Below are positions 6,306-62,202 of a DNA stretch of 64,000 nt, piece after piece (within the stretch, counting starts at the first letter, position 1; every line of letters begins with the position of its first letter). The stretch comes from Dehalococcoidia bacterium. Its GTDB lineage: Bacteria; Chloroflexota; Dehalococcoidia; Plut-88900. The DNA is taken from positions 2,976,001 to 3,040,000 of the forward strand of contig OZ240215.1 of NCBI GenBank assembly GCA_965197585.1, in the 5' to 3' direction. The notes beneath the pieces were generated by a model, which searched no databases, was not told the origin of the DNA, and saw only the letters and a list, made by a program, of their open reading frames with translations. A program made the position numbers and the translations under genes.

Positions 6306-7125
6306 TTTTGATTGACTCAATCAAAAGTTCGTGCCTGTATGATTGATCTGGGGAAGAAACCGGCGGTGTCGACCGGATTGAAGAGTGCGAAAGGGTGGGG
6401 GTGGGGATTCCGGCTCGGTGGAGAGGGTGTTTATTCAGTTGGGGTTTGGGGTTTTGGTTTGGTTTGGTTTGTTGGGAGGGACTGGCGATGGAAGGTCCGG
6501 GAGTGTTGGGCAGGGAGGCGGTTAGGCCTGTGCCGGTGCCTGTGGGCGTCGACTGCCTGCACAGGACAGCCCCTAGCTTCTGAGAGGATGTGGAGGGGAC
6601 CCGAGGGATTCTCGGTGTGGGGCGTCCCGACCACCAGAAGTGCTCGATCATGCGGAGGAATGGGAGCGTGACTCGAAGCCGCCGAGGGGTGCGCGTGCCT
6701 CTCCGAAGGAGTCGGCCTAGGGCACGATGGCCCCTAGCACAGCCCTGCAATAGGGCGGGATTTTTACATTTCGCTGGGATATGCGCATAGCGTTGACTCG
6801 AACGCGCCGGGTGAGTGATGCGTTGAATCGGGCTGGTCTCGCAAGCCTACATGCTGCTTAGAGTCGATGGACCTTCCATCGCGTGGTTGGTGGGGGAAGG
6901 GTGAGCCGGGGCCTTTGGTATGAGGAGGTGGCGGCTTTTGCTTGAGCCGAGGGGCGGCGTCTGGGCCGCCCTTTGGGATGGGCTTGGACGTTGAGTCCTC
7001 GGGGGCCGGGGATGTGGTTCCCCCTGGGTTGTGGTTCCTCCTTGGGTTTAGGGTGTGTGACGGGCCAGTCGAGGGTGAATATAGTACATGCGTTTTGATT
7101 TGGTCAAGGGGTTCGTGTCACATTT
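6306..7125 (-). repeat. Copy A of three-copy structured repeat (candidate large ncRNA or non-autonomous element)
   Basis: 103-nt core 6566-6668 matches 46778-46881 and 58442-58545; perfect 14-bp IR at 6485-6498/6869-6882; promoter at 7078-7107. Confidence 0.75.
7078..7121 (-). promoter_or_regulatory. Sigma70-type promoter with degenerate LexA-like box
   Basis: TTGACC-N18-TATATT; AAAC-N4-GTAC abuts the -10; GTGACAC lies 7 nt upstream of the -35. Confidence 0.6.
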
Positions 7126-7163
7126 GGCCAAGTGGGATCACCCTCACCCTAGCCCTCTCCCAT

Positions 7164-8453: not shown

Positions 8454-8620
8454 GTGAGGGTGATCCCACTCCTACATAGCCGTCATTCCCGTGAAAACGG
8501 GAATCCAGGGTTGGACATTCCGCTCGCCCTGAGCCGAGTCGAAGGGTCTCAAGAGCGGCAGTGGTGTGGGGCCGCCTTATCCCCTCTCCCTCGATGGGAG
8601 AGGGCTAGAGTGAGGGTGAT
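8454..8620. repeat. Cluster of REP-like palindromes
   Basis: CGTCATTCCCG..CGGGAATCCA (8481-8507), CCTGAGC..GTCGAAGG hairpin (8518-8558), CCCTCTCCC..GGGAGAGGG (8581-8604); the same types recur near 45.7-46.1 and 58.9-59.4 kb. Confidence 0.8.
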
Positions 8621-8630
8621 CTTCCCAAAT

Positions 8631-8673
8631 GTGACACGACCCGATTGACGGGCTGGTGCGCAGGTGCTAGATT
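8631..8673 (+). promoter_or_regulatory. tRNA promoter
   Basis: TTGACG-N17-TAGATT about 30 nt upstream of the tRNA; GTGACAC 7 nt before the -35. Confidence 0.6.
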
Positions 8674-8703
8674 ATTTTCCGCCCTGCCCCGACGGTAATT
8701 CTC

Positions 8704-8779
8704 GGCAACGTAGCTCAGCGGTTAGAGCGGGGTCTTCATAAGGCCTAGGTCGCTGGTTCGAACCCAGCCGTTGCCACCA
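8704..8779 (+). tRNA. tRNA-Met (CAT), probably elongator
   Basis: GGCAACG/CGTTGCC acceptor stem, TAGCTCAG D-arm, TTCATAA anticodon loop, GGTTCGAA T-loop, encoded CCA; G1:C72 paired so not initiator; Ile2 not fully excluded. Confidence 0.93.
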
Positions 8780-8882
8780 ATTCTCCTTCCAAAACAGTTA
8801 AGGCTACTATCTCGCAAGTGCACAAATGTGCTACAATTGGTCCAAACCAGAGGGAGCGATATTAGGTGCTCTAGATGTAACT

Positions 8883-10055
8883 ATGGAAATCACAACATGC
8901 TTTCGGTGTCGAAGGCCCATCACAACTGCCAACAACTCTGAGGAACACATAATCCCCAATGCCATCGGAGGGCGAAAAAAGGTGGGGGGGTTCATCTGTA
9001 GAGGCTGCAACAGTACCGTCGGTTCCAAGTGGGATGCCGCACTAACTCGTAAACTGAATCCACTTGCACTACTTCTTGGCATCACTCGGCAACGGGGAAG
9101 TATTCGCCCAGAGATTTTTGACACTCTAGACGGCAATGCCGTTCGCATGAATGCAGACGGGAAGATGTCTCTCGCAAAGCCCACATTTGATAAAAAAACG
9201 GATGGGGCTACCACCAGAATACAAATCAAGGCTGGGACAAAAGAGGAGGCTTTGCATATTCTCAAGGGGGTACGCGAAAAGTATCCTCAACTAAGACATC
9301 GTAAAGTAGACGAAATATACTCGGCGTTTCAGGAGAAGTCCCACTACGACCCCAGCCCGCTACGCATCGAGCTTGACTTTGGGGGTGTAGACTGCGGTAG
9401 GTCGATAGTAAAGTCTGCTGTGGCATTAGTTTTCGAGGCCGGCATCCGCCCTGAACAGTGCAACATTGCTCTCAGTTACTTATTGAGCGATGGCGAGGAG
9501 CCTTGTTTTGGTTATTACTACACTAAGGACAAGGACATTATCCTTAATCGACCACCCCAAACACCTATCCATTGCGTGTATGTAGAAGGTCGTTCGGAAG
9601 AATCGTCCATCGTTGGTTACATTGAGCTCTTCAGTCTATGGCGAATCGTGTTTTGTCTATCTGATACATACAAAGGTAGTGACTTCACGCATGCATATGC
9701 TGTGGACCCAATCAAGGGCGAAGAGTTAGATGTATCGGTCAATCTTGATCTCTCCCTGTCCGAGATTCACGAGGCTTACGAATATGAACATCTTGACTAT
9801 GAAGTTTACAAAGATGTGATCTGCCAAGTGCTCGATAAAATTCAAACACTTGACTTCAATCGCGCCATGAGGCAAGCGATCGAAAATGCGATCGACGCCG
9901 CCTGCATTAAGTCTGGAATCAAAGAAGGAGACGTTCTGTCCGAGGACCAGATTGGCGTTCTTGCAAAAGACGTGGCAGAGGGAATGGTGCCCTTTATCAC
10001 TCACAACATTAGTCCTAGACCTAGTCTTGAAGAGCTTGTTCACCAAGATTGTTAG
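8883..10055 (+). CDS. HNH endonuclease-domain protein (low-GC islet)
   Basis: CxxC, SEEHIIPNAIGG and CRGCN at the N-terminus; ATG at 8883 preferred to track start 8826. Confidence 0.85.
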   Translation: MEITTCFRCRRPITTANNSEEHIIPNAIGGRKKVGGFICRGCNSTVGSKWDAALTRKLNPLALLLGITRQRGSIRPEIFDTLDGNAVRMNADGKMSLAKPTFDKKTDGATTRIQIKAGTKEEALHILKGVREKYPQLRHRKVDEIYSAFQEKSHYDPSPLRIELDFGGVDCGRSIVKSAVALVFEAGIRPEQCNIALSYLLSDGEEPCFGYYYTKDKDIILNRPPQTPIHCVYVEGRSEESSIVGYIELFSLWRIVFCLSDTYKGSDFTHAYAVDPIKGEELDVSVNLDLSLSEIHEAYEYEHLDYEVYKDVICQVLDKIQTLDFNRAMRQAIENAIDAACIKSGIKEGDVLSEDQIGVLAKDVAEGMVPFITHNISPRPSLEELVHQDC

Positions 10056-10157
10056 GCTTGGCAACCAAAGGTCTTCGTATACCCCCAGGAAAGAATTTCC
10101 ACTGAAACAATCAAAATTCGTGCCTGGATGATCGCATCAATCAAAAATCTCCCCACC

Positions 10158-21700: not shown

Positions 21701-24700
21701 GTCAATCTCCCCCGGAAAGTCCCCTCCGCGTCTATCGAAATCTCCGATGGCCCGCTAAACTCCATCTCCGTCCCGGCATACACTCCTATTTCCGGGTCGC
21801 TCCAGGATCCCCGGTAGTCATCGTTCCCTATAGCATGGGCAATGAGTTGGTAGCTTCCCTCTTCGAAGCTATCCGGCACCAGGACCTCTATCTCGAACCG
21901 GCCGTTTTCCGTCTCCGTAGTTCCCAGCCTCCAGCCACCTTGTTCCTTCGTTTCGTTAATGAATATCTCCACCTCCATCCCATCCACCGGAGCGCCGGAT
22001 AACGTATTCACTTTCCCCCCTATATCGAACGGTAGCCCTTTCCGCGTCTCCCTGGGCCATTGGTCGATCTCGATTACAGTCCCGCGCTTTATCGGATCAC
22101 CCTGTGAATGGACTAGATCGCCTCTGGCTTGGATCACTCGGGAAGGTGCACCCCCTGATCCCGTCGGTTCGAAGGTCACCCATCCAATCCCCTCAAACGC
22201 CACTTCCGCCCACTGGTGCCCCTGGTCCGAATACACTGTTTGGCCGCCGGGGGCCTTCACTATCATCCAGCCCGACACAACCCGCGCAGGTATCCCCACC
22301 GACCTTGCCATTACCACGAATGCACTGCTGTACACCCCACATGTCCCCTCCCGATGATCGAACAGGAACCAGTCAACCGGGTCCCGGCCCTCAGGGGGTG
22401 CGTCGTCAGACGAATCGGCGAACGCATAAGGGTAAGCGGTGCTCAGATATCGCTCCAGCGCCTTAGCCTTCAGGTAGGGACTGCTGTATCCACTTGTAAC
22501 CTCCTTCGCCTTCAGGCGGACTCTGTCCGGGACGCTGGAGGGTAATTGGGTGTAGGTTGGGTCCGACGATACGGAAGCCTGCCTGAGCTGTGCCTCGGAG
22601 TAGACGGGAATCTTCGCTGTCCACGTGTACTCGGACACTGATTCTGCGGAGTAATGCGTTGCATTGTAGGCCCATAAGAAACTCCCGGTATCGATGCTAT
22701 TGACTTGGAGGGAGGTTGCCAGTGGACCTTTGGGGAACTTCTCCAGCGAGCCAATGGGAGTCATGCGAATGACGTCCGTATACGTTGCAAAGGGTGTTGT
22801 CTGAAAGCCGGCCAGCAATGAGATATCAAGCCGTTCGGGAGGAAGTCGAGAAAACTCGCTGTCCGGATTTTCCATTTCCCTCAACACTGCCTCCGGCACG
22901 TTCTCATTTGGAGTGACCCAGAACCCGACCGGGTGCAATTGATGCCATCGGCCATTCTGGTACAAGTCTCCCACTGCAGTCCGCAGACGGTCTGTATGAC
23001 CCGCGCCGTCTACTTGGAATATAGGATTATGGGCAAGCCCAGCAGATTGAGCCGTAGTGGTGCCGGGTACCCAATATCCCAGATTCTCATACACAACCAG
23101 GGAAGCGCCGTTCTCCAGGGTAGTGATCGACGCCCCTCTCTTTTCCAGAATCTCCAGTGCCGCTTCTTCATATCCCGGCCTCGTGTCACCCAGGATCCGT
23201 TCCAGGTTGAACAGTCCTACACCACTGTCTTCGTCCAGGATATCCAGGTTCTCATCTATCTTCTCAGTAATCGCCTGTATGTCCGACTCCGGTACTGCCG
23301 ATTCATCGTCTCCTGCTGTGCCCTCGCCACTTCCTTCGACCTCTTCCCCATCCCCCGCACCGACTTCATCAACATAGAAGCCTGGCGTCCGGGACGGCGG
23401 CCCCGACGCAGTAGGCTCGAAAGAAACCCACCCGATTTCATCCAACGCCACCTCCGCCCACTGGTGCGCCTGGTCCAGGTACACCGTCTGCGTTTCGCCG
23501 GTCTGCCCAATCGCCCAGCCCGACACCACCCGGGCAGGTATCCCCACCGACCTTGCCAAGACCACGAAGGCACTGCTGAACTGGCCGCATGTGCCTTCCC
23601 TGCTTTCAAATAGGAACCAGTCCACCGGGTCTCGGCCTGCCGGAGGCTCGGCAACTCCCGATTCTGCAAACGCATACGCGTAAGTCTCTCTCAGGTACTG
23701 CTCAATAGCCTTTGCCTGGGCGTACGTCCCGGTATAGCCCTCCGTGATCTCCCTCGCCAGTTCGCCTACCCGTCCCGGCACGGTTTCCGGCAACTGCGTG
23801 TATACAGCGTCCTCATACGCCCCCGCCGCTCTCAACACCTCGTCCTCGAATTCCACTGCACGCGCCGACCACACGACCCGCTCAGCCTCGTTTTCGATGC
23901 GGACCGTGCTGCTATACGGGAAGTACACCCCCGGCTCTAATACGAACCGCATGTCCAGCGACGCGGGTATTACACCCGCCGCTATAACTGCCCCATCATT
24001 TGCTGGCGAAACTATGACTGACAAATTGACAGTCTGGCCAGTCAGATAGCGAGAGGTGGAAGATCCGGGCGGCCCAGGTCGGCTGGTCCCGCTCTGCGCA
24101 TTCAGCACCACTTCCTGCAGCTGTTCTATCCCTTCGTATGGCGCTTCCACCGGGTCCGATTGCGTCCACCGCCCGTTTTCGTACACATCCCCTGTTGCCG
24201 TGCGCAGATAGTTGAGCTTCTCAGCGCCACTCACCTCGAACACCGGCAAGTGCGGTGGCTTTCCCGCCTGCATCGTGGTTGTGCCCGCACCTAAAGCCAA
24301 CACCTCATCATCCACTAACCCCACAAGTCCCCCATTCTCTAGCCGGGTGATATCGGCCCCAAGCCTCTCACGTGCTGCCTCCGCCGCCGCCCTCACCTCC
24401 GGGCTGGGGTCTGAAAGAGCCTCCATAAGTGGCCCTATTGCCTTCGAGTCTCCCAGACTCGCCAAGCCGCCAATTGACAACTCTCTAACGAGTGCGGATT
24501 CATCCTCCTTCAGCGCCTTTATTAGCGCGTCGACCGCTTTCTCGCCCTTCAATGTTGCCAGGGCTTTTGCAGCCTCGGCCCGCACCTCTTCCGCCTCATC
24601 CTCATGCAGTGCGGATATCAGGGGATCTACAGCGTTCCGGTATCCTTCATCTCCCAGGGTCTCGGCGGCTTTGGCCCGGACCTCGGCCGCCTCGTCGCTG

Positions 24701-26943
24701 CCCAACGCATCAATTAGCGGATCGCTCACGTCCGTTAATGTTTCGGGTGCGATCTCGGAATACTCCAGCAGTTCATCAATCGTGCCCAAGCGCTCGTCGA
24801 GATCGGGATTGGAGAGCAGCTTATCGCCCAGCCGGTCCAGTTCGTCCACCCATGCCTCCATCACCGTGGCCCGGAAGGGCGCTCCGTTAGATGGTGTCGG
24901 TTCGAACCTTCTCCAGCCTATGCCCTCGAAAGCCACCTCTGCCCATTGGTGGGCCTGGTCCGCGTAAACCGTTTGCTGCTCCACTCCTTCGCTTATCACC
25001 CACCCCGATACCACGCGCGCCGGTATACCCACCGACCTTGCCAACACCACGAACGCACTGCTGAACTGGCCGCATGTGCCTTTCCTCGTCTCAAAGAGGA
25101 ACCAGTCCACTGCGTCTCGGCCCTCGGGCAGGGCTTCGTCGTCCTCTGTAGCGAACGCGTATTCGTAGTTATCTCGCAGGTGCCACGCCAAGGCCCTCGC
25201 CTTCTCATACACCGACTCGTGTTCTTCAGTGATCTCTTCGGCCAGCAGACGCACTCTCTCAGGTACGTTTTCCGGCAGCCCAAGTGCCGTTGAGTCCGAA
25301 TACGCCTGCGCCGCCAGCATCTCTTCTTCCGAGAACCGATGCACACCGGACATCCACCCATACTCGTCGACTTCTATGTCCGTCGAGAAAGTCCCGCTGA
25401 AAGGCCTGTAAAGCCCGTCCGTGTCAAAGAATTCCGCACCTATAGTGGTAGGCAGCGCTCCCGCCGGCACTTTACGCCCCGGTTCATGGGCCGAAACGGT
25501 TATTCGCTGCCGGCTCGTTTCTTCTGCCGGGCTCTCCGGCCAGAGCAGCAGGGATGCTCCTGCGTCTTCCCACGGCAGGATGTCTACGTTTCCGTCCTCT
25601 ATTAGCACCGCATATACAAGTTGGCGGGTCGGTGTTCGTGCCGCGTAAGCCAGTTCCACAGGGTCGGTCCTGGTCCATCCTTGCCCCGTGTACTCGTCTC
25701 CTGCGTCTGTGCGCAGATATCCTGTTGCGCTTGCGCCGCTCACCTCGAATACAGGCCTGTCGTCCGGTGTTGACACCCGGCTTGCGCTCGTCCCTGGCGC
25801 CCAGAAGACTTGGTCGCCTATATAGACCAATGCCGCGCCGCTCTCCAGCGGTGTCATCGAGGCGCCTATGTCACTCAGGATCCACTCCGCTGCGTTCTTC
25901 ACCCCAATATCAGGACCTCCCAACGCCTCAACCAACGCCGTCTCCGCCGCAGCACTCACTTCCGGGTCATCCCCTCCCAATGCCTCAACCAGAGCCGACT
26001 CCGCCGCCGTCCTAACGTCCTCGTTACTGTCCCCCAACGCCTCAACCAGCGCCGCGACTACTGCCGGGTCAGCCATGCCCGCGAGCTCGGACACAGCCTC
26101 GACCTTCTCATCCGGGCTCCCGTGTATCAGCAAGTTGAAGTAGTCCACTTCACTCGATGCTTGGTCTTGCTGGGTCGTCGGGCCTGGCTGGCCCGACAGG
26201 CCCGGCACCCCTTCTCCCTCCGTGGTCCCGGTTGCCGGCCGCCAGTAGACGTTCACGGCGCCGGTGTAATCGGGTGTCGTCTCCACCACCGAGTGGTGTT
26301 TGAAGAGGTTGACCCCGTATATGGCGTCGGAGCCGAACATGCCGAATACCAGGGCTGCTGTCAGCCACGCTAGAAGAGGTATGGGCAAAAGCTTGGGCTT
26401 TGCCACCTCAACCAGGCCAACGGTCACCACGAATGCGGCCAGCAGCGTTAACCCCAACGGCGCCACACCCTCGGTCTTGACCGGGTGTTCTCCGTAGTCC
26501 ACCCCGCCGAAGGGCAACCCCTCACCGAATACCGAGGAAGCGACTAGGTAAACACCCGTCCCCAGCAACCCCACCGCGACTACTTCACCCGGCAGCAAGG
26601 CCGTCCACCCACGTCCCTTGCTATCTTTAAATCGACGCTTAAGCAGAAGGAGTGCCGCGAGTCCCAGCAGGATGCTCATGGCCGGCGCCACCACGGCAAT
26701 CAGACCTGCGCCGCTCGGTATTTCTGACGCGGCTGAGTCAGCCGCGTCCTTGGTAGTTAGCAGGTCCCTGGGTCCGTCGCTGGTGAGCCCGCCAAAAAGC
26801 TCGAAGAGAAAAAACAGTCCACCAAGAGCCACCGCCAAAACCAGGAGCAGACCGAGATGGGACCTAACCTCCCTGAACAACCCCATCATCTGCCCATTAA
26901 ACGCACCTTTGTTCAGATCACATCCTTGACACTTACCTGTCAT
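18778..26943 (-). CDS. Giant transglutaminase-like protein: 3 TGase domains, HEAT repeats, Ig-like repeats, TM, DUF4129-like end
   Basis: Three GTCG.[FY]SSAFVV.ARSVGIPARVVSGW...HQWAEV...FEPT blocks; L..AL.D....VR..A repeats; about 95-aa beta repeats; TPRE...FEEADYS C-terminus; true start may be 26889. Confidence 0.9.
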   Translation of the reverse strand: MTGKCQGCDLNKGAFNGQMMGLFREVRSHLGLLLVLAVALGGLFFLFELFGGLTSDGPRDLLTTKDAADSAASEIPSGAGLIAVVAPAMSILLGLAALLLLKRRFKDSKGRGWTALLPGEVVAVGLLGTGVYLVASSVFGEGLPFGGVDYGEHPVKTEGVAPLGLTLLAAFVVTVGLVEVAKPKLLPIPLLAWLTAALVFGMFGSDAIYGVNLFKHHSVVETTPDYTGAVNVYWRPATGTTEGEGVPGLSGQPGPTTQQDQASSEVDYFNLLIHGSPDEKVEAVSELAGMADPAVVAALVEALGDSNEDVRTAAESALVEALGGDDPEVSAAAETALVEALGGPDIGVKNAAEWILSDIGASMTPLESGAALVYIGDQVFWAPGTSASRVSTPDDRPVFEVSGASATGYLRTDAGDEYTGQGWTRTDPVELAYAARTPTRQLVYAVLIEDGNVDILPWEDAGASLLLWPESPAEETSRQRITVSAHEPGRKVPAGALPTTIGAEFFDTDGLYRPFSGTFSTDIEVDEYGWMSGVHRFSEEEMLAAQAYSDSTALGLPENVPERVRLLAEEITEEHESVYEKARALAWHLRDNYEYAFATEDDEALPEGRDAVDWFLFETRKGTCGQFSSAFVVLARSVGIPARVVSGWVISEGVEQQTVYADQAHQWAEVAFEGIGWRRFEPTPSNGAPFRATVMEAWVDELDRLGDKLLSNPDLDERLGTIDELLEYSEIAPETLTDVSDPLIDALGSDEAAEVRAKAAETLGDEGYRNAVDPLISALHEDEAEEVRAEAAKALATLKGEKAVDALIKALKEDESALVRELSIGGLASLGDSKAIGPLMEALSDPSPEVRAAAEAARERLGADITRLENGGLVGLVDDEVLALGAGTTTMQAGKPPHLPVFEVSGAEKLNYLRTATGDVYENGRWTQSDPVEAPYEGIEQLQEVVLNAQSGTSRPGPPGSSTSRYLTGQTVNLSVIVSPANDGAVIAAGVIPASLDMRFVLEPGVYFPYSSTVRIENEAERVVWSARAVEFEDEVLRAAGAYEDAVYTQLPETVPGRVGELAREITEGYTGTYAQAKAIEQYLRETYAYAFAESGVAEPPAGRDPVDWFLFESREGTCGQFSSAFVVLARSVGIPARVVSGWAIGQTGETQTVYLDQAHQWAEVALDEIGWVSFEPTASGPPSRTPGFYVDEVGAGDGEEVEGSGEGTAGDDESAVPESDIQAITEKIDENLDILDEDSGVGLFNLERILGDTRPGYEEAALEILEKRGASITTLENGASLVVYENLGYWVPGTTTAQSAGLAHNPIFQVDGAGHTDRLRTAVGDLYQNGRWHQLHPVGFWVTPNENVPEAVLREMENPDSEFSRLPPERLDISLLAGFQTTPFATYTDVIRMTPIGSLEKFPKGPLATSLQVNSIDTGSFLWAYNATHYSAESVSEYTWTAKIPVYSEAQLRQASVSSDPTYTQLPSSVPDRVRLKAKEVTSGYSSPYLKAKALERYLSTAYPYAFADSSDDAPPEGRDPVDWFLFDHREGTCGVYSSAFVVMARSVGIPARVVSGWMIVKAPGGQTVYSDQGHQWAEVAFEGIGWVTFEPTGSGGAPSRVIQARGDLVHSQGDPIKRGTVIEIDQWPRETRKGLPFDIGGKVNTLSGAPVDGMEVEIFINETKEQGGWRLGTTETENGRFEIEVLVPDSFEEGSYQLIAHAIGNDDYRGSWSDPEIGVYAGTEMEFSGPSEISIDAEGTFRGRLTEEAGDPVGSRTIRVNIQGLAPFQVTTDDRGAFSFTRTFGRTGQRSVAVTFEQEGYMLGNEASLDVMVTMPSVLTIDAVDNVRVGEDFVITGTLRNIRGGVLARQSIEVTLPDGEVASVQTRERGEFTVRGSTERRGVYGIQASFAGDDILEPRKSGYTLSVFEPVFLELSGDREVQVGDEYVINGTLMDSNGAPLPLKQIEITLPGEVKASALTDEQGEFRRNAVAERPGRYGIEVAFSGEDVLEPSKAGYTLSVTEPVFLKLSGDREVQVGEEYIIRGSLADSRGAPLSQREVDITLPEEAVTSVLTDELGEFEMKGVTDQPGRYAIEATFTGDDLLEPGRSGYTLSVVELVLLDLSGDRVVRMGAPYRLEGTLARTDGEGLEGHTLMVSARQGEPVEVVTSLLGSFLWETTFEEIAETDLKVKFAGTDELALIQATLSVTVGRAEIVVKEPEPVARGDSVTIRGVTLISGQTVPDTRIEVNGQELARTNAVGAFVVRMPVQSDAELGEMELEVSAVELEAETKVSVRVMAMTSLLVTPVEEARAGRLVQVEARLLDDHGVGIPGAAVHYAGYGSAVTDELGVALLMVDVPDEEGLTIVPLRVSYEGDGTNLPVSYLASLQVRSGGLGWLVWALLPVLLVLGAGGGFFGSRRFGRRTVLASARPSGAAAVASGPPLTVEVVVQSARLEMGFLDPSPDAKNAWQVGEEVEVWCRLPDDSGRGIAEAEIRVVWGDEEAQMELVTDRKGQCSASWAGDEPGMYRVTAEFAGTERFSSAETFEEFELRLLMPTRLEVSFVKPAEDLPEIWSVEEEVKVTLALLDDVGRGLQGRSIRVLIGDTGEMEELITDDDGRCESVWRGEDLGVYQVEAEFAGDEGHLPSEGRGRFEVVEFRDDIVKRYNLFLAGMRQKVSGISGKATPREVESVVVASGLTLDQRALEELIARFEEADYSEHDIGRRQFEAAYRAWRRLGEE

Positions 26944-28740: not shown

Positions 28741-31017
28741 TTGACTGAATTCTTGGCCCGCTTTAGCGCGCGCAAGCCTTTCTTGATCATTGCTATCTGG
28801 GCTGTGATAGGGCTGGTTGCAGGCGGGTTTGCTGTTGATGCCCAAATCGCCCCTTGGCCTCCACCTCTTACCGACTTCCTCGACAGGGCCACCACCACGG
28901 AGTTTAAGCTCAGTAGCAGCGCAGGGTCCGAACGCGCCGACCGCCTCCTGGAAGACCGGCTCCGCGGCCCCAAACCTGTAACCGAACTGATAATCTTTCA
29001 GTCGGACTCCGTCACCGTAGATGACCCCTCATTCCTGCCCAAAGTCCAGGAAGTGGCCACCGACATTCTGGCTCTCGGGCCCGACATCGTAGCCCTTCCT
29101 CCCGACTTCAATCCCGCCGCCCCTCCCCCCATCTCCGAAGACCGCAGCACCACGTTTTTCGCCGTGATCATGACCGGCTCCTTCGAAGACGCCGTGGACA
29201 ACGTCCCCGACGTCCTCCACGTAGTCGAGGAGGCAGACAGAAAGGACGGCCTCCGCGTTTTCATGGTCGGAGACGCCAGCACCGCCCACGACAACAACGA
29301 GCTGTCCGAAAACGACCTGAGGCGGGGGGAACGCGTCGGCCTTCCCATCGCCCTCATTATTCTCATCGTCCTCTTCGGTACAATCGCCGCAGCCCTAATG
29401 CCCGTCGGACTGTCCATTGCCGCCATCATGGTTGCCCTCGGCATCACGGCCCTCGTAGGACAGGTCTTCGATCTGACCATCTTCGTCACCCTCATGATCA
29501 TCATGATCGGGTTGGCCGTCGGGATCGACTATTCCCTCGTCATAATCTCCCGCTACCGGGATGAGCTTGCCCGCGGCCTCGACACCAAACCCGCCATCGA
29601 GCGCGCCGGTGCAACCGCTGGCCGCACCGTCCTGTTCAGCGGCATCACAGTCGTCATCGCCCTATGTGGCATCCTGATCGTTCCCTTCTCCTTCTTCCAG
29701 TCCCTGGCTATCGGGGCAATTCTGGTAGTACTGGTCGCTTTGGCGGCCACCCTCACCCTTCTGCCTGCCAACCTTGCCATCATGGGCCCAAGAATCAACC
29801 ACCTGCCCATACCCTTCTTCGGCAAGTCGAGAATCGCGCCCTCCGAGTCCTCCGGCCGGGGCTTCTGGGAGCTTATAACCCGCGTTGTTACCAAGTCTCC
29901 GGTCATCAGCTTCCTTATCGTAGCCGCACCAATGGCCGCCGCTACCTATTTCTATTTCGATATCGAAACAGGCCTCAACGGCGTCGACGCCTTCCCCGAA
30001 GGTACCCAGACCCGAGAAGCCTTCTTCGTGATGGAAGAGCACTTCTCCTTCGGCCTCGTCAACCCGACCGAAATAGTCATCGACGGCGATATTGACAGCC
30101 CAGCGGTCAGGCAGGCCATAGGCGAGCTTCAGGCCTCTCTGGCGGCCCACCAGGGCCTGCAAGTCGTTCCCGGTGAGACCGTCAACGATCCCCGAGACCT
30201 CGCCCTGTTTACCGTTCTCATTCCCGGCGAACCCCGCACCCAGGAAGCCGTCGACGTCGTCAATACCATCCGGGACCAGTACATCCCCGCCGCCTTCGAC
30301 GGGGTAGACGCTGAGGTCTTTGTCGGCGGCATTAGCGCGGAAGCGACAGACGTGTACTCCATAGTCCAACGATACACGCCCATCGTATTCGCCTTCGTAC
30401 TCGGCTTCAGCTTCCTTGTGCTAATGCTGGTTTTCCGCTCGATAGTCATTCCCATCAAAGCCGTATTCATGAACCTCCTATCCGTCGGCACCGCCTACGG
30501 GCTCATGGTCCTGGTCTTCCAGAAGGGAGGCGCCGACTTTTTCGGGTTCCAGCACGCGGAGGTCATCGACGTCTGGATTCCCCTCTTCCTCTTCTCAATC
30601 CTCTTCGGCCTCTCCATGGACTACCACGTCTTCCTCCTGAGCCGCATCCGTGAGCGCTACGATCAGACTGGGGACAACGCCGAGGCCGTGGCCTACGGTC
30701 TCCGCTCCACCGCCGGATTGATCACCGGAGCCGCCCTTATAATGGTCGCCGTCTTCGGCGCTTTCGCCAGCGGCAAGACCATCATCAACCAGCAAGTAGG
30801 GTTTGGGCTTTCCGTAGCCGTGCTCCTGGACGCCACCCTCGTGCGCTCTGTCCTCGTCCCGGCCAGCATGGATATGCTTGGCAAACGCAACTGGTACCTC
30901 CCATCCTGGCTGAACTGGCTGCCGGACCTGCGAATAGAAGCGGAAGAAATTCCAACTCTTAATGTTCAAGGTCAAGCCTTACAAGGAGGTGCTGCCGCCA
31001 ATGACAATCCCGACTGA
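28741..31017 (+). CDS. MMPL-family transporter
   Basis: GLAVGIDYSL, TAGRTVLFSG, FGLSMDYHVFLLSRIRE and DATLVR motifs. Confidence 0.93.
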   Translation: MTEFLARFSARKPFLIIAIWAVIGLVAGGFAVDAQIAPWPPPLTDFLDRATTTEFKLSSSAGSERADRLLEDRLRGPKPVTELIIFQSDSVTVDDPSFLPKVQEVATDILALGPDIVALPPDFNPAAPPPISEDRSTTFFAVIMTGSFEDAVDNVPDVLHVVEEADRKDGLRVFMVGDASTAHDNNELSENDLRRGERVGLPIALIILIVLFGTIAAALMPVGLSIAAIMVALGITALVGQVFDLTIFVTLMIIMIGLAVGIDYSLVIISRYRDELARGLDTKPAIERAGATAGRTVLFSGITVVIALCGILIVPFSFFQSLAIGAILVVLVALAATLTLLPANLAIMGPRINHLPIPFFGKSRIAPSESSGRGFWELITRVVTKSPVISFLIVAAPMAAATYFYFDIETGLNGVDAFPEGTQTREAFFVMEEHFSFGLVNPTEIVIDGDIDSPAVRQAIGELQASLAAHQGLQVVPGETVNDPRDLALFTVLIPGEPRTQEAVDVVNTIRDQYIPAAFDGVDAEVFVGGISAEATDVYSIVQRYTPIVFAFVLGFSFLVLMLVFRSIVIPIKAVFMNLLSVGTAYGLMVLVFQKGGADFFGFQHAEVIDVWIPLFLFSILFGLSMDYHVFLLSRIRERYDQTGDNAEAVAYGLRSTAGLITGAALIMVAVFGAFASGKTIINQQVGFGLSVAVLLDATLVRSVLVPASMDMLGKRNWYLPSWLNWLPDLRIEAEEIPTLNVQGQALQGGAAANDNPD

Positions 31018-32176
31018 CTACACAATTGGTTACGAAAAAGCCCGAGCCATCGCGCCCGATATCGCAGACAAATACGTCGCACACACCCTTATTGGAGACC
31101 CCCTGGGCGAAGAGATGGCGGCAGACCTTGAGGCGTTCAGCGCATCTGAATCAGAGAGGCTCATTCAAGCGGCCATGAATGAGGAAGGTGAGGAGGCCCT
31201 GAGAGACGCCCCGGACTCCCTGCGAAGATTTTTCAAAGAAGCGGAAACCACCCCGGACTGGCTCGACTATTCTGCATTCGCTCCGAGTGTCCGCATGTTT
31301 TACAGAAACTCGCAGATAGTCCTGGCCGCATTCGTTGCAGGAGTTCTCATAGAAGGCTTTACAACCAACATCGCAAAGTCCTTCTTCATCACCGGGCGGG
31401 TGCGTGACCAGGGCATCCGGCGTCTGGGGCAGAACAACCGTCACATGATGGAGATATTCCTCCCCGGCGGCATGTACAGGCATGGGGACGGTTGGAAGCT
31501 TTCCCTCCGCATCAGGATAGTTCACTCACGCCTTAGACGCCTCCTCAACGATTCCGAAGACTGGGATAAGGAGGCTTGGGGAGAGCCCATCAGCGCCGCT
31601 CACTTGGGCTACGCCATTTCCGCCTTCTCGGCAAGGCTGCTCAAGCACATGAAGACCCTCGGCGCCACTTACAATAAGGAGGAGTACGATAGCTTCATGG
31701 CCGTTTGGCGCTACAGCGGTCACATAATGGGCATCCCTGAAACCATTCTGTTCCAGGATGCCGATGAAGCTCTGAAGCTGTGGAAAATCGCCCTCACGTG
31801 CGAGCCCGATTCCCCAATTGAATCAATCGTGATGGCCCACGCGCTGGTCAACTCTGCCCCGTTGATCGCCGGCGCCACCGAGCCGCAGGCCCGCCGCAGC
31901 CTGGCCAAGTATGTATACCGCTTGTCTCGCGGACTTATCGGAAAAGAGTTCGCCGATTCGCTGATGTATCCACCCATCTCCCCCTTTGGAGCGGTATGGT
32001 GGTTCAGGACGCAGCAGCGCTACGGCCACGTCCTGAACAAGCTGTTGCCGGGCCGCCGTGAAGACAGCAACTTCTCCAAATTCACGTCCCTGCTCAGCAC
32101 TTCATTGTTCGACGAGGAAGGGATACGCTACACACTGCCCGACCGCGTGTACGCGGAAGAGTCGGTCCACTACTAG
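31001..32176 (+). CDS. MpaB/Lcp-like (DUF2236) heme oxygenase-family protein
   Basis: GDPL, PDWLD, RIRIVHSRLR, WGEPIS and W.Y.G.+MG+P motifs; ATG at 31001 after GGAGG, overlapping the MMPL stop. Confidence 0.8.
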   Translation: MTIPTDYTIGYEKARAIAPDIADKYVAHTLIGDPLGEEMAADLEAFSASESERLIQAAMNEEGEEALRDAPDSLRRFFKEAETTPDWLDYSAFAPSVRMFYRNSQIVLAAFVAGVLIEGFTTNIAKSFFITGRVRDQGIRRLGQNNRHMMEIFLPGGMYRHGDGWKLSLRIRIVHSRLRRLLNDSEDWDKEAWGEPISAAHLGYAISAFSARLLKHMKTLGATYNKEEYDSFMAVWRYSGHIMGIPETILFQDADEALKLWKIALTCEPDSPIESIVMAHALVNSAPLIAGATEPQARRSLAKYVYRLSRGLIGKEFADSLMYPPISPFGAVWWFRTQQRYGHVLNKLLPGRREDSNFSKFTSLLSTSLFDEEGIRYTLPDRVYAEESVHY

Positions 32177-32390
32177 CTGGCGTGTCCGCCTACTGCCGAT
32201 TGCACTCCCTGCGCCAGCTCCCCCAACTGTGCATTACGTCGGCGGTGTTCCATGTCGGCACAGAGATGCTATAATCCCCCCGCGGAGTAACTCGCAAGTC
32301 TAAACCGCGCCCCGATTGGCCCTCCGGCAAGGAGGTGTGCTCAGGGTCGTGGTGCCGGATTCCGCATAGCCATCTAGGGAGACGGTCTCA

Positions 32391-32789
32391 ATGGATACTA
32401 ACGGTCAGGAAGACGGAGCTACCACTTGGAAGGTTGCCGACACCAAGAATCTGATGATAGACGGAGAGAAGAAGTCCGGGGCCCTTATCGCAAAGGCTTC
32501 CGGCCGCATAGACGGCAGCAACGCCCGGGAATTCCAGGACGCCCTGGATACCTTCCTGGAAGGCGAAATCTCCGCCCTTATCCTGGACATGGAGAATCTC
32601 ACCTACATCAGTAGTGCTGGCCTCAGAGTCATCCTGCTCGTCTCCAAGAAGCTGCAGAGGTCGTCTGCCAAGTTCGGCATCTGCGCTCTCTCAGAGTCCA
32701 TTGGAGAGGTATTCCAGATCAGCGGCTTCGACAAGATCATCTCGACCCATCGCACCCAAGCCGATGCGCTCTCCGCTATCAACGGCTAA
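32391..32789 (+). CDS. STAS anti-sigma factor antagonist (RsbV-like)
   Basis: GRIDG, LDMENLTYISSAGLRV and VFQISGF motifs. Confidence 0.92.
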   Translation: MDTNGQEDGATTWKVADTKNLMIDGEKKSGALIAKASGRIDGSNAREFQDALDTFLEGEISALILDMENLTYISSAGLRVILLVSKKLQRSSAKFGICALSESIGEVFQISGFDKIISTHRTQADALSAING

Positions 32790-45671: not shown

Positions 45672-45850
45672 CCACCCATCCCCAGGTGGGGGGCCGCTCA
45701 CCCTGAGCAAGCTGGAAGTGCGCCGTGCTGTAAGTCCGCCTTTGGCGGAGAGCATCGAAGGGTCGACCGGGCGCAGGCCCGCGCCCCTCCAATCCATCAC
45801 ACCCATCCACCCCCACCCCCGGAGGGGAACCTGTCCGCCCAAGGCGGATC

Positions 45851-47370
45851 ATCCCGAGGCTCCGCGAGGGATCTGGGGAGAGGGGTCCAGTCCCCTCTCC
45901 CTCCCTTTACTCCGTCATTCCTGCGGAGGCAGGTCGCAGATGCGCCAAGGCGCGAACCCATCCCTCCTGAAAGCACACCCCCGCCGAGCCGAAATCCATC
46001 CCCAGGGGTGGGGAATTCCGTTCGCCCTGAGCGAAGTCGAAGGGTCTCAAGAACGGAATGGGGTGGTGTCCCCTACCCCAAAAGTGACACGAACCCCTTG
46101 ACTCAACATGAACATGCGTACTATATTACCTCTCAGGCCCGACTCCCCACGTCGGCCCTAATCAAGGAAAGGTGGAACATCCGCCCCCTGGCGGAACAAA
46201 AGGAGTCCCATGAGTCGCACAAGCCTTCATATGCCCCATCGTTACCGAGCGGTATGTCACCGCCCGGCCACAGGCACGCGCCTCCTCCCCAATCCCTTTC
46301 CTCCCACCATCCTACGCATCAACACCCACTACAAGCGCTGCCCCAGGGCCGAACGCCTCCGCCTCCGCAGCGATCAATCATCGTCCCGCCTCCTGCATGG
46401 AAGGTCCCCGGACAAATCAAGGCACGCCCTGCTGCAGGGCAGCCGCCTCCGCATCAGCGCCCCCGTCGAGGGGCATACTTACGTCGCCGACTTAGTCCTT
46501 GCCGGCGAATCCCAACAGTCGGATGAGCGCCGACTCAAAACCAACGCACCATTTAAGGATTCCACCGTCGTCACAACCGGAGAACTTCCGACTACGAACG
46601 CCGGTCTCGGGTCCCCGCTCCCATCCCTTAGGGTGGTCGAGCACTTCTGGTGGTCGAGACCGCCCCACACCGAGAATTTCTCGGCTCTCCTCCACATCCT
46701 CTCAGAAGTCAGGGGCAAGGATTCCACCGTCGTCACAACCGGACTACTTCCGACTACGAACGCCGGTCTCGGGTCCCCGCTCCCATCCCTTAGGGTGGTC
46801 GAGCACTTCTGGTGGTCGGGACTGCCCCACACCGAGAATTTCTCGGGTCTCGTTCACATCCCCTCAGAAGTTCGGGGCTGTAGCAAAGCCGGCTTCGATG
46901 TGGAACATCCGCTGTCGCGGACAACACCCATCGGTACAGGCGTCGCCGCCTTCCTGCGCAATCGTCCGGGACCTTCCATCCCCTTCCCCTCCCGTTTTCT
47001 CCGTCTTTCCTGCGGAGGCAGGTCGCAGATGCGCCAAGGCGTGAATCCATTCCCGAAAGGGCAGGGGCCCCGCTCCTCGGGGCGTACCCTCCCCTCCCTC
47101 CCCCTTGTCCATTCCCCCAGTAGGGACGACCGGCCGGTCGCCCTGGGTGTGGGCGCCCCGAATAGGGCGTCCACACCTCTCCCCCTCCCTTTTACCATTC
47201 CGAGGCTCCGCGAGGAATCTCGGACTTGCCCGCTCACCCTTCCCCCCCACCTCACCCCACCCTCGAAAGGGGCCGCCTACTAGCCCATACCCTCAAAATG
47301 CCCCATGCCCATCCTGGGGAAACACCGCAGAACAATCAAAGATCACGCCTGAGTCCGCACATCAATCAAA
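45851..47370 (+). repeat. Copy B of three-copy structured repeat
   Basis: Colinear with copy C from the REP flank to the CAATCAAA pair; IR at 46397-46413/46964-46979; internal 162-nt tandem duplication. Confidence 0.85.
46084..46127 (+). promoter_or_regulatory. Sigma70-type promoter with LexA-like box
   Basis: TTGACT(46098)-N18-TATATT(46122); GAAC-ATGC-GTAC at 46110-46121. Confidence 0.7.
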
Positions 47371-47505
47371 CCTCCCCCTTCATGCCTGGCCCGTCGGCCC
47401 AATCAGGGCATCAATCTGCAGCGGCTGTTTCCGTTGTCCCTCCTGTCACACTGGGTTAGAATGCCGGAGCGTGATTCTACACAGTCCCCTGCCCGGAGGT
47501 AGCCA

Positions 47506-48375
47506 TTGCCCTACGACACCCTGCTCTACGAAAAGACCGGCCAAATCGTCAAGGTGACCCTTAACAGACCCGACGTCCTGAACGCCATCAGCGACGAGAT
47601 GGTAAAGGAGATCCGGCTGGCCATTGATGAGGCCGACGCCGACCCCGGAGTCCGCGTCGTCATCCTCACGGGCGCCGGACGCTCCTTCTCCGCCGGCTAT
47701 GACATCAAGCCCCGTGAAGACGGGCGTCCTGCAGCCGACCCGCAGGGCTTTGAAATTGGCGACTATATCAAGCTCTGGTGGGACCGGGACGCCTACGACA
47801 CCGATCAATTCACCCATTTCTGGAAGCTGGGCGTCCCAGTCATCGCTTCCGTCAGGGGCTACTGCTTTGGGGGCGGGTTCTGGTACAGCATGGCCTGCGA
47901 CATCACCATTGCCGCCGACAACGCCGTCTTCGGCCAGCCCGAGGTCCGGCACATTTCCAATACGTCATTCATGCTAGCTGCCCTCTCGAACTGGAAGCAG
48001 GCCCACCGCTGGGCCCTCACCGGTGACCACATGGGTGCCGAGGAGGCTCTCCGCATCGGTGTAGTCACACAGGTAGTCCCCGAGGCTGACCTGGACGCCG
48101 TAACCTGGGCCCTCGCCGAGCGCATAGCCCTCGTCCCCGAGGCCTCGGTCCGAGTCAACAAGGCAGTCACCTGGATGGGCATGGAGGCGATGGGACTCGG
48201 CGCTGCGATGCAGGTCAACGCTGCCCTCTCCAGCGTGGCCCACAGCTCCCACGGTGGCCATCGAGAGGCTCTCTGGGACGCACAGTCCACCGGAGGCCTC
48301 AAAGGCTTCCTGGAGGCCCGGGACGGCCCCTTCCTCCCCGAGCCCTTCGGCCCCAAGTCAAGGAAGAAGAAATGA
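47506..48375 (+). CDS. Enoyl-CoA hydratase/isomerase family protein
   Basis: LNRPDVLNAI, FSAGYDI, GYCFGGG and FGQPEV motifs. Confidence 0.92.
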   Translation: MPYDTLLYEKTGQIVKVTLNRPDVLNAISDEMVKEIRLAIDEADADPGVRVVILTGAGRSFSAGYDIKPREDGRPAADPQGFEIGDYIKLWWDRDAYDTDQFTHFWKLGVPVIASVRGYCFGGGFWYSMACDITIAADNAVFGQPEVRHISNTSFMLAALSNWKQAHRWALTGDHMGAEEALRIGVVTQVVPEADLDAVTWALAERIALVPEASVRVNKAVTWMGMEAMGLGAAMQVNAALSSVAHSSHGGHREALWDAQSTGGLKGFLEARDGPFLPEPFGPKSRKKK

Positions 48376-57885: not shown

Positions 57886-58086
57886 CTACCTGGGACCGGC
57901 CGTCTGGCAGTCGAGAGTTGGGCCTTCGATCGGTCACGGAACCGTGGGCAAAATAAGTACAAGTACAAAACCTCGACCAAAATAATTGTACCACAATGCC
58001 CTGTTTTTAGCTACTGTTTATGCCTGTCAAATATGATGGGGTCACGGGGGCCGGCTGCTCCTTTGTTGGATGTTGGGAGAGGGAGT

Positions 58087-59370
58087 TTTGATTGATGTGC
58101 GGGCGCAGTCGTGGTCTTTGATTGTTTTCGGGGAAATTTGGTTTTTTCCGGGGTGGAGACGCCGGGGATGGGGAGGGGGTTCCTTTCGTGAGTGGGGTGA
58201 GGGGAGAGGGGGGAAGGGTGAGCGGGCAAGTCCGAGATTCCTCGCGGAGCCTCGGAATGGTAAAAGGGAGGGGGAGGGGTGTGGACGCCCCAATCGGGGC
58301 GCCCACACCCTGGGCGACTGGCCGGTCGTCCCCAGTGGGGAAGTGGGCAAGGGGGAGGGAGGTGATGGAAGGTCCCGGACGGTTGCGCAAGAAGGCGTCT
58401 ACGCCTGTGCCGATGCATGTGAGATCGGCGACGGCTCTGCGACAGCCCCTAACTTCTGAGGGGATGTGGACGAGACCCGAGAAATTCTCGGTGTGGGGCA
58501 GTCCCGTCCACCAGAAGTGCTCGACCACCCTAAGGGATGGGAGCGGGGACCCGTGACCGCCGTTCGTAGTCGGGTGTTCTCCGGTTGTGACGACGGTGGA
58601 ATCCCTAAATGGTGCGTTTGTTTTAAGTCGGAGGTTGTCCGACTGTTCGGACTCGCCAGCAAGGTCTAGGCCGGGGGAGTCCGGAGGGGGCGCTATGGCC
58701 CAAGGAGGAGACATGACGCTGTGCTCCAGGGCGTCGCCTGAGGAGGCGAGACGGATGCGCCGGGTGAGTGTAGCGCGCATTTGGCAGTGGCCCTTGGAAA
58801 GGGGGTGCCGTGATTTGTCCGGGGACCTTCCATGCAGGGGGCGGGACGGTGATTGATCGCTGCGAAGGCGTAGGCGTTGGGCCTTTGGGCAGCGCTTGTA
58901 GTGGGAGTTAAGATGGGGAGGACTGGGGAGGAGACCCCGCCTATTCCGCTCTTGAGACCCTTCGACTCCGCTCAGGGCGAGCGGAATGCCCCACCCCAGG
59001 GAATGGTCGAGGCGGGAATGGGGGCTGGGAAGGAGGCGCGTGCCAATGGCCGGGCGGTGGCATACCGCTCGGGTGTGACGGGGCCTATGGAGGCCGGTGC
59101 GACTCATGGGACTCCTTTAGTTCCGCTCCGCCAAAGGCGGACTTTCAGCTGGGCGGATGTTCCACCTTTCCTTGATTAGGGCCGACGCGGGGTGTCGGGC
59201 CTGGCAGGCAATATAGCACGAATGTTCATGTCGAGTCAAGGGGGTGGTGTCACTTTTGGGGAATCACCCTCACCCCCTCGGGGGGACTCGGGGCAGGCTC
59301 TAGCCCTCTCCCGTCAGAGGGAGAGGGGACTGGACCCCTCTCCCCAGATCCCTCGCGGAGCCTCGGGATG
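58087..59370 (-). repeat. Copy C of three-copy structured repeat
   Basis: IR at 58365-58380/58817-58833; core 58442-58545; TTTGATTG pair at 58087/58117; colinear with copy B. Confidence 0.85.
59210..59253 (-). promoter_or_regulatory. Sigma70-type promoter with LexA-like box
   Basis: TTGACT-N18-TATATT; GAAC-ATTC-GTGC abuts the -10; GTGACAC 7 nt upstream of the -35. Confidence 0.65.
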
Positions 59371-59481
59371 ACAGGGTCAAGGGGTTGGCGTCACTCGCCG
59401 AGGCGAGTCTTCGACCCCATCTCCCCGGGAATAAATGGAGGGGCGCCTAATGGACGGGCTCAGACCACTGACTCGACCTGC

Positions 59482-60795: not shown

Positions 60796-60872
60796 CGGGG
60801 CGGAGTCGGCTAGCGTGACGTTGCGATTTCAGGACCACCCGACACCCCAAGCGACCACCCGGGGTTCCAGCG

Positions 60873-61787
60873 CTACGATGAGAGCGCTGCGGCGACGCCC
60901 TCTATTTTCCCCGGCCCCGATGTAGTGAGCTCACCGACCGCTTTGACTATGTTCGGGTGCTGCAGTCCAGATACGAGGAAGGTCCACCGGCATGCACGCT
61001 GCGTATTTGTCGTGATCTCCTCTTTCTCGGCAGCCGTGAACGTCCGTCCGGTCACCCTCTCAAGAGCTTCTATGTTCAGCCCAATCTGCTGTGCCAGGAG
61101 CCCGTCGATCGCCCCACCAAGCTCCAGAACCTCATCGATCGCACTCTCCCGCTCTTCAAGGGTCAAGGTCTCGGCTACTTCACCGATCAGCAACGTGTCC
61201 AGCTTGGCGTGCTGCGCCTCTTCTATCCAATGAAACCTCAGGAGGTCCCGGACCAGCCCATCGAGGTCCGAGTCGTCGCGCACATGCTCTATGTAGTGGA
61301 GCTGGGTAAACCATTCGATAATCGCGGTCAGGAGCATGACGGCCAGCTTTGACTTGCTCCGAACTACTTTCGCCACATCTTCCCTACCAGGGATTAAGCC
61401 GCACTCACTGCCGAAGCCCCGGCCGAAGAGTTCAACCGATCTCCGAAACAGCTCCTGATGCTTGAGTTCTTCCTCAGCGAACCGCAACAACGAGCGGGCC
61501 CTGACTTCGTCCCCATAGACCTCCTTCATAGCCTCTTCCGTGACGGTGGGGATGATGAACTCCTCCACGAACGCGAAGATGTGGCAGTAGGCGTTGCCCA
61601 TAATCTGATTCAGCTGGCGCCTCTCGCTGTCGTTCAAACATCCGATCTCGTCTACACCGGTCAGCTTGTTGGGCAGGAAGCGTTTCGAGAAGTCGAAATT
61701 CTTGTCGGCCAGGACATCGTCTTCCAACCAGGAAACCCTCTTCGAGATGTCAAGACACTCTTGGTATGTGTAATTGTGTGAAAGCAC
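60873..61787 (-). CDS. Ferritin-like diiron protein (AurF-like)
   Basis: FVEE, EELKH, IEW..QLHY and EEAQH motifs; GGAGG RBS. Confidence 0.75.
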   Translation of the reverse strand: MLSHNYTYQECLDISKRVSWLEDDVLADKNFDFSKRFLPNKLTGVDEIGCLNDSERRQLNQIMGNAYCHIFAFVEEFIIPTVTEEAMKEVYGDEVRARSLLRFAEEELKHQELFRRSVELFGRGFGSECGLIPGREDVAKVVRSKSKLAVMLLTAIIEWFTQLHYIEHVRDDSDLDGLVRDLLRFHWIEEAQHAKLDTLLIGEVAETLTLEERESAIDEVLELGGAIDGLLAQQIGLNIEALERVTGRTFTAAEKEEITTNTQRACRWTFLVSGLQHPNIVKAVGELTTSGPGKIEGVAAALSS

Positions 61788-62202
61788 GTGCTGCTCCTCC
61801 TTCTACTAGGCCCTTCGCTGCGATTCTCCATACTCAGCTTACTGGATCCAACACCAACACAATAACATAGGTGACAAACATAGGACTTTCACTCACGAAT
61901 GCGGGCAAATTTTCTATCAAGATCACAGATCCATCCGGGGAGCGGGCTGAACCGGGTGATCGATGGGCCACTCGGCCCGTACATTCGAAGTCCGCGCATG
62001 TGCCCTTCCTGCCGTCGCTTCGACAAGTGGCCGATATGGAAGGTCCTTATCTGGACCAACCTCCTCTGCAGCGCATTGGTCCGCTGATGGAAGAAGTTCT
62101 GGGGCGGCTGGTACTCGCGTGCGGTGAGATAGGCTTCAGGTGGGGGCTGATGTCACATGTCGACTACCTAGGAGCCACCACTTTGTGAATTGCAGCGCAA
62201 TG

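Follow-up and report, generated by a model that had tools for sequence, protein, structure and literature searches.

Folded remnants of a phage-type terminase gene and a mobile sister branch in a genus of Dehalococcoidia

Introduction

Promoter-carrying MITEs, non-autonomous bacterial transposons exemplified by the Correia elements of Neisseria, resemble the elements described here in lacking a transposase, in having terminal inverted repeats and short target duplications, in occurring as tens of intergenic copies, and in their ability to set a promoter beside host genes. The present elements differ in their much greater length (0.73–0.9 kb), in a terminase-derived interior with interchangeable class-specific middles, in a complete inward promoter driving a strongly folding domain of 0.4 kb, and in their location at a fixed point 5 bp upstream of −35 boxes. 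TG..CA ends are shared with the IS481 family (rve DDE transposases), and a resident 1056-bp IS with a 5-bp duplication shares 20 of 32 end positions with the elements; however, the elements encode no transposase, and the resident IS targets GGAAT in a small repeat, not −35 boxes.

Two further systems are relevant. Phage and GTA terL genes align with three of the elements, copies A, B and C, at 66–80% DNA identity over the nuclease-domain segment, and a promoter type and a downstream motif are held in common, but the elements lack coding constraint, are present in dozens of copies, and are selected for pairing and not for protein. GOLLD and ROOL are large phage-linked bacterial non-coding RNAs whose function is unknown. 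Like them, the elements span several hundred nucleotides, are strongly structured and have a phage-related context; unlike them, the elements have no Rfam match, lie in or derive from a coding gene, and are mobile and high-copy. The present analysis adds the terminal repeats and target duplications, the −35 targeting, the origin from terL, the fold inside intact terL, and the link to the CAATCA motif. Among the listings and abstract openings returned by a full-text literature search, none dealt with such elements or with −35 targeting.

Copies A, B and C lie in a 64,000-nt stretch of a Dehalococcoidia genome (contig OZ240215.1, positions 2,976,001 to 3,040,000), hereafter the window. The original prediction described them as a three-copy, promoter-driven element with a conserved architecture, either a large structured RNA or a non-autonomous mobile unit. 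That observation is partly confirmed and its interpretation partly supported, in that both readings hold in part. We judge it probable, at roughly 70%, that A, B and C are non-coding remnants of a terL module within a genus-restricted superfamily of at least 72 copies per genome, of which a sister branch is mobile.

Results

Copies A, B and C in the window

All three copies are present where they had been placed, and each contains a promoter, an inverted repeat, a core and a CAATCA pair (Table 1). B on the plus strand and C on the minus strand are close to each other (84–100% over ten blocks), A matches both at 73–89% in blocks, and a 104-nt core (46778–46881 in B) is common to the three. Parts of the outline were redrawn. 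The B span of 45851–47370 also takes in unrelated small dispersed repeats at 45849–45903, 46006–46056 and 46975–47330; the last of these is a REP-like cluster between the core and the end motif that is not family-specific. The core belongs to a longer stretch, of 414 nt, with homology to a terminase gene. The CAATCA pair accompanies all three copies as proposed, but it constitutes a repeat in its own right, with about 20 copies in each genome, and is inverted in A; the motif CAATCA-TCGTGCCTG-CAATCA was found about 20 times in this genome (G000), versus 0 for the reversed control.

The B promoter is the sole strong promoter-like site upstream of the promoter of the hydratase gene, and no plus-strand terminator was found between the B promoter and that gene. 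A 357-codon ORF, on which there is no coding constraint, opens at the ATG at 46210. Neither a Pfam nor a PHROG family was found for this ORF and the elements measure only 0.73–0.9 kb, which bears out the claim that no transposase lies inside the copies. The absence of a known RNA family was likewise upheld: an Rfam check of the window gave only one tRNA at gathering score, B gave no match with E below 0.8, and ten class representatives gave only a flanking tRNA and sub-threshold microRNA-type matches.

Table 1. Coordinates of copies A, B and C and of related features. Positions are those of the window unless a contig (C1 of G000) is named.
Feature	Position	Strand	Remarks
B: GTGACAC box	46084–46090	+	upstream of promoter
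B: sigma-70-type promoter TTGACT-18-TATATT	46098–46127	+	putative transcription start near 46134
B: leader	46134–46318	+	with small hairpin repeat, SD-like AAGGAG (46200–46205) and ATG (46210)
B: non-coding remnant of terL nuclease-domain segment	46319–46980	+	blastn, tblastx, codon-position and helix counts
B: inverted repeat ATGGAAGGTCC / GGACCTTCCAT	46397–46407 / 46969–46979	+	bounds terL remnant
B: 162-nt tandem duplication	46555–46716 / 46717–46878	+	94% between units
B: covarying hairpin	46812–46857	+	helix counts
B: small dispersed (REP-like) repeat cluster	46975–47330		dozens of short genome-wide matches
B: end motif CAATCA-N-TCACGCCTG-N-CAATCA	47331–47379	+	CAATCA pair at 47332/47362
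Host promoter TTGTCC-17-TAGAAT of enoyl-CoA-hydratase-like gene (47506–48375)	47434–47462	+	
C, whole	58078–59261	-	promoter 59239–59210
C: inverted repeat ATGGAAGGTCC / GGACCTTCCAT	58833–58823 / 58375–58365	-	
C: terL-derived segment	about 58364–58674	-	
C: CAATCA motif	58078–58126	-	pair at 58117/58087
A, whole (class 1)	6306–7140	-	TGATCCC 7140–7134; promoter 7107–7078
A: inverted repeat (ATGGAAGGTCC / GGACCTTCCAT at 6879–6869 / 6498–6488)	6882–6869 / 6498–6485	-	
A: terL-derived segment	about 6477–6684	-	frame-breaking 1-nt deletions
A: CAATCA motif	6306–6350	opposite orientation	pair at 6307/6317
Promoter of family type, profile positions 2–96 only	8604–8693	+	directly upstream of tRNA-Met (8704–8779)
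Solo CAATCA-TCGTGCCTG-CAATCA motif	10100–10150	+	attached to no family member
REP-like repeats, first pair	45849–45903 and 59317–59371		
REP-like repeats, second pair	46006–46056 and 8508–8558		
Head-module cluster: terS-like, terL, portal, head protein	G000 C1:2855000–2874700		
Solitary terS-terL pair	G000 C1:1117800–1120100		

A genus-restricted family

The element had been taken for a three-copy one, and its copy number was understated about 25-fold. Searched with a profile of the 5' part of A (the promoter and about 230 nt, ending GGCGATGGAAGG), the 3.43-Mb single-contig genome gave 83 matches, 57 of them above 150 bits and 72 extending over more than 150 profile positions, so that the genome holds at least 72 family copies. 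About 11 of the 83 matches are promoter-only, one of which directly precedes the tRNA-Met gene at 8704. Family copies have a sigma-70-type promoter, an ORF-free leader, and a segment of 390–510 nt inside an inverted repeat of 11–15 bp. A 3' module occurs 55 times, in each case 250–800 nt downstream of a 5' module, with a class-specific middle between the two; the modules are never more than 800 nt apart, which leaves no room for a gene.

The 57 strong copies fall into six classes (12, 11, 10, 7, 6 and 6 members) and five singletons. A is a member of class 1, whereas B and C fall into another, diverged group with about 13 members. Middles of different classes share no sequence on either strand and are of similar length (392–507 nt), and haplotype blocks have been shuffled among classes to give a mosaic 5' module. 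For the middles of classes 0 and 2–5, no DNA or translated match was obtained elsewhere in the genome apart from one for class 5, a weak tblastx match (E 1.4e-7) near 233 kb, in a repeated region with ORFs that belong to no Pfam family.

Matches, with many copies in each genome, were found in all eight other genomes of the genus, in none of three genomes from other genera of the family, and, weakly, in one of 29 further genomes of the class. Copies on the plus and minus strands number 30 and 8 in one replichore, between about 1.06 and 2.65 Mb (limits set by the cumulative GC-skew extremes), and 16 and 18 in the other; genes do not show a strand bias of this kind. An association with tRNA genes was considered and dropped, as a family promoter was found near only 3 of the 50 tRNA/tmRNA genes detected.

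Descent from the head of a packaging operon

Two of the promoter-only profile matches head pairs consisting of a small, terS-like ORF and a large ORF, terL, that matches PHROG terminase-large-subunit families (E 7e-6 and 8e-5). One terL locus continues with genes for a portal (E 1.9e-27) and a major head protein (E 8.9e-75). Within 20 kb upstream of terS-terL, only a restriction-modification pair and host genes were found, with no integrase, transposase or replication genes; the idea of a mini-Mu-like derivative of a transposable phage was rejected because this interval contains no Mu-type transposase. Full-length terL homologues are present in 33 of 41 genomes of the class, mostly as single copies, and number two to four per genome in this genus. 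The maintenance of terL in these genomes, together with the lack of lysogeny and replication genes upstream, suggests that the terL cluster is either GTA-like or a defective head module that has been resident for long.

In A, B, C, class 1 and three singletons, the sequence enclosed by the inverted repeat can be aligned over its full length with a 414-nt segment of the terL nuclease domain. B matches the two terL genes at 70–75% identity by blastn (E 1.8e-36; tblastx E 1e-40), with homology reaching about 100 nt further upstream into terL; C is 73.6% identical over 314 nt (E 2e-47), and A is 66–71% identical. The promoter type of the family copies also heads the terS-terL operons, and the CAATCA motif is found downstream of intact terL in three other genomes of the genus (G004, G006 and G007). 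The presence of a terL remnant in the elements and of the CAATCA motif after intact terL indicates that A, B and C are internally deleted promoter-terS-terL-CAATCA modules.

Substitutions between the two terL genes are distributed over the three codon positions as 25/19/45, versus 26/25/26 between B and C and pooled rates of 0.320/0.331/0.297 for the elements. Class 1 has 1-nt deletions, and in several copies a hairpin repeat has been inserted. These flat counts, deletions and insertions identify the element cores as non-coding descendants of terL, and the claim that conservation acts on nucleotides and not on protein stands. B does have an SD-like sequence and an ATG (46200–46212), the frame that follows stays open for 357 codons and is in register with terL, and the 162-nt duplication is a multiple of three. 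That B and C encode a shortened TerL-like nuclease is nevertheless highly improbable, given the equal substitution of codon positions, the lack of any Pfam or PHROG family for the B ORF, and the deletions and inserted hairpin repeat inside the 'coding' part; moreover, long open frames are expected by chance on the C-rich strand. Taken together, these comparisons show that the superfamily descends from the head of a packaging operon and that coding has been lost.

A selected fold

Fold z-scores were computed against 100 dinucleotide shuffles per sequence. The cores of C and A score −6.38 and −4.08, and the middles of classes 0, 2, 3, 4 and 5 score −4.78, −3.39, −6.59, −3.85 and −2.75, in agreement with the prediction of a structured element. 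The same segment in the two intact terL genes of G000 scores −5.65 and −5.78, and intact terL segments in G006, G007, G004 and G008 score −3.49, −7.09, −5.23 and −4.43. In contrast, the equivalent terL segment of four other genera gives −0.65, +0.89, −1.36 and +1.56; the controls, a neighbouring terL segment and the hydratase gene, give −0.84 and −0.47. In minimum-energy folds, a long-range helix closes the domain in each element middle and in most intact terL segments of the genus, and an exact 9+9 repeat was found in the intact terL of G000 and G005.

Compensatory changes were scored in two helices. Among 30 distinct cores from several genomes, 80% of the cells of the core stem are paired, versus 30–54% when partner columns are shifted. 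Two-sided changes affect five of the 11 core-stem pairs, by counts taken without a tree, and the closing pair of the inner hairpin alternates between C-G (12 sequences) and G-C (8 sequences). Core-stem G-T pairs outnumber A-C mismatches by 13 to 6, an excess that favours the sense strand. RNAalifold on the core alignment returned a weak consensus (−4 kcal/mol) that did not propose the core stem under test. Across 73 elements the closing helix takes the form GGCGATGGAAGACGC/GCGTCTTCCATCGCC or GGCGATGGAAGGTCC/GGACCTTCCATCGCC, with a few mismatched recombinants; its three covarying positions (GACGC/GCGTC or GGTCC/GGACC) reflect few independent events, as there are only two main haplotypes.

Alternatively, the family might be selfish or neutral DNA only, with A, B and C as decaying terL pseudogene fragments whose fold was inherited and is unselected in the copies. 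The clear terL homology with loss of frame agrees with such decay, as does the presence of the inverted repeat and of equal fold scores already in intact terL of the genus. Two-sided changes preserve the helices after coding was lost, however; the unrelated class middles retain the closing helix and significant folds; and A, for all its divergence from terL, still folds at z −4.1. We therefore consider pure decay unlikely. These results show that selection keeps the fold, not the protein, in the elements, and that the fold is also retained in intact terL of this genus alone among the genera tested.

A mobile branch that inserts upstream of −35 boxes

Members of the sister branch (classes 0–5) begin with TGATCCCGTTC... 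at one end and finish with ...GAACGAGTACA at the other. These ends form imperfect inverted repeats of about 28 bp with TG..CA termini, which agree at 19 of 28 positions as counted on one element sequence. In copies with the 5' end TGATCCCGTTCACATAGAGGGGTGACA, the preceding 5 nt repeat those that follow GAGTACA. The 5-bp target duplication is exact in seven of the 14 copies that have both ends, matches at four of five positions in another five, and is weaker in two.

The 29 copies with a complete 3' module reveal a precise target. After the 3' end ...GAACGAGTACA (GAGTACA) come five variable nucleotides and then TTGAC, with counts beyond the element end of T27 T25 G25 A19 C19 (of 29); further downstream, a spacer that shows no conservation leads to a −10-like box. 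The mobile branch is thus inserted exactly 5 bp upstream of −35 boxes and in the same direction as the next gene. A co-oriented ORF lies just downstream in 25 of 28 complete copies, versus a ratio of 24:20 for shortened copies, orientation counts that rest on crude gene calls (long ORFs filtered by GC3). Three sites (L075, L070 and L057) are filled in the same-genus genome G005 and empty in G000, with flanks about 93–96% identical. At L075 and L057 the −35 box is present in the empty site and the element lies 5 nt upstream of it, and at L075 the 5-bp duplication is visible on comparison of the filled and empty sites.

Inverted ends, 5-bp duplications and a fixed target position together argue for spread by transposition, and we conclude that the sister branch is a non-autonomous DDE-type transposon, of the cut or copy kind. 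The terminal repeats are absent from B and C, and A retains only TGATCCC; these three copies look like immobile, deleted derivatives. The suggestion of a non-autonomous mobile unit is borne out for the wider family, with its terminal repeats, 5-bp duplications and filled and empty sites. An IS200/IS605-type palindrome-associated element or an omega-RNA (HEARO-like) module would also be ORF-free, structured and multi-copy, with asymmetric ends. IS200/IS605 elements are not known to make target duplications. The elements here have 5-bp target duplications and TG..CA inverted ends, and no Rfam match to HEARO or IS605-associated motifs was found, leaving such an assignment with very little credibility.

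A candidate autonomous partner

The resident 1056-bp IS encodes an rve transposase (PF13683, E 6.8e-23) and has TG..CA ends and a 5-bp duplication; 21 near-full-length copies were found in G000 (C1), for example at 1248220–1249275. It always lies in a small repeat, ...CCTCGGAAT|GACA..., with GGAAT as the duplicated target, and several copies are located about 55 nt upstream of family promoters. The positions at which its end equals the element end include the inner TGACA box. At E ≤ 1e-30 this IS was not found in G004–G007, four of the eight other genomes of the genus; one of these, G005, nevertheless has apparently new element insertions. The 1056-bp IS is the best candidate for the autonomous partner of the mobile branch.

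Transcription and the possibility of an RNA gene family

In the short contigs of two RNA libraries (metatranscriptomes), only the multi-copy core was represented, at depths of up to 41.7, and the flanking genes were not. These contigs reveal neither the starts and ends of transcripts nor their strand. In DNA runs the core-to-flank depth ratio is about 40, so carried-over DNA would mimic the pattern seen in the RNA libraries.

These data bear on a tentative alternative, that the copies are genes for a large, structured non-coding RNA that make up a family of their own, with the RNA acting in trans and the copies spreading by duplication only. A strong conserved promoter, element folds with z from −2.75 to −6.59 and compensatory pairs, the 13-to-6 bias of the core stem towards the sense strand, and coverage of the core by RNA-library contigs are all consistent with it. 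We regard it as possible but doubtful: many members have terminal repeats, 5-bp duplications and a precise target, which point to transposition; the 3' end is set by no terminator; no Rfam family was matched; and the RNA-library contigs do not separate RNA from DNA.

Recombination among copies

The class of the middle differs between species at six orthologous sites. At the site of B, G001 has a class-4 member that ends 5 nt upstream of the hydratase −35 box. G005 contains a B/C hybrid together with an inverted hydratase gene 11 kb away, indicating an inversion whose two ends are the oppositely oriented copies B and C: the 11–13-kb segment between them (46–59 kb of the window) is inverted in G005 at C1:644–657 kb, with the breakpoint inside the element core. 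An inverton acting as a promoter or leader switch was rejected, because the class middles have no minus-strand similarity to one another; no strand-changing joints occur among the joints listed for two DNA runs.

Proposed history and role

On the preferred reading, that of terL-module remnants with a mobile sister branch, the ancestor was a phage-type packaging operon, GTA-like or from a defective prophage, and specifically its head, which comprised a promoter, a small terS-like ORF, terL and the CAATCA motif. A, B and C retain the promoter with its GTGACAC box, the leader, a terL segment of roughly 400 nt in the inverted repeat, and the CAATCA motif. Classes 0–5 acquired imperfect terminal inverted repeats of about 28 bp and move by non-autonomous DDE-type transposition, and copies swap parts by recombination. 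The structured domain is predicted to be transcribed from the promoter and to form a free RNA, or else a long 5' leader that continues into the next gene; in B, transcription could extend into the hydratase gene, no terminator preceding it. The domain may act as RNA in the terS-terL system, and the dispersed copies may act on neighbouring genes, serving as strong promoters followed by long, structured leaders, or may give rise to RNAs that work in trans.

A more specific role can be imagined in which the terL-embedded fold is a functional RNA or single-strand module of GTA-like packaging (recognition, regulatory or motor-associated, as with a phi29-like packaging RNA) and the 70–80 or so dispersed promoter-driven copies, spaced at roughly one every 45 kb, either provide this module in trans or label the chromosome for packaging. 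We hold this to be distinctly unlikely; if true, a family of mobile elements would be linked to gene transfer.

If the preferred reading holds, this is a well-documented case in which a phage coding segment became a selected non-coding folded module and was then amplified, and a bacterial transposon has a base-precise preference for sites just upstream of −35 boxes. Portable strong promoters with long structured leaders, placed before host genes, would make up about 2% of the genome, and such promoters could rewire expression across the whole genus. In the terL genes of this genus, a coding region would be subject to an additional, structural constraint that is absent from orthologues elsewhere, a difference that makes the function of the fold directly testable.

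Other repeats in the window

Small REP-like repeats of at least two families (TCATCCCGAGGCTCCGCGAGGGATCTGGGG... and GCCCTGAGCGAAGTCGAAGGGTCTCAAGA...), with dozens of copies across the genome, take up the intergenic DNA surrounding the elements. An AT-rich, foreign-looking stretch at 8780–10100 reaches from the tRNA-Met gene to the solo CAATCA motif and may be a small island integrated beside the tRNA gene. The upstream side of A is adjoined by a 1262-bp IS481-like IS (7164–8425; C1:2983164–2984425) with a transposase that starts MSQREEF... and ends that start TGTATAGACC...; this IS recurs at C1:2803294 with an identity of 90% or more, and the two copies have a 237-nt stretch in common at 97.9%. 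Two repeats longer than 1 kb, at 30525–32459 and 60811–61968, each have one other copy at 90% identity or more (C1:2612312 and C1:2214380, respectively) and are probably ISs. Finally, a 147-nt unit is present in three direct copies (22261–22407, 23509–23655 and 24994–25140) that are 77–78% identical and spaced 1248 and 1485 nt apart.
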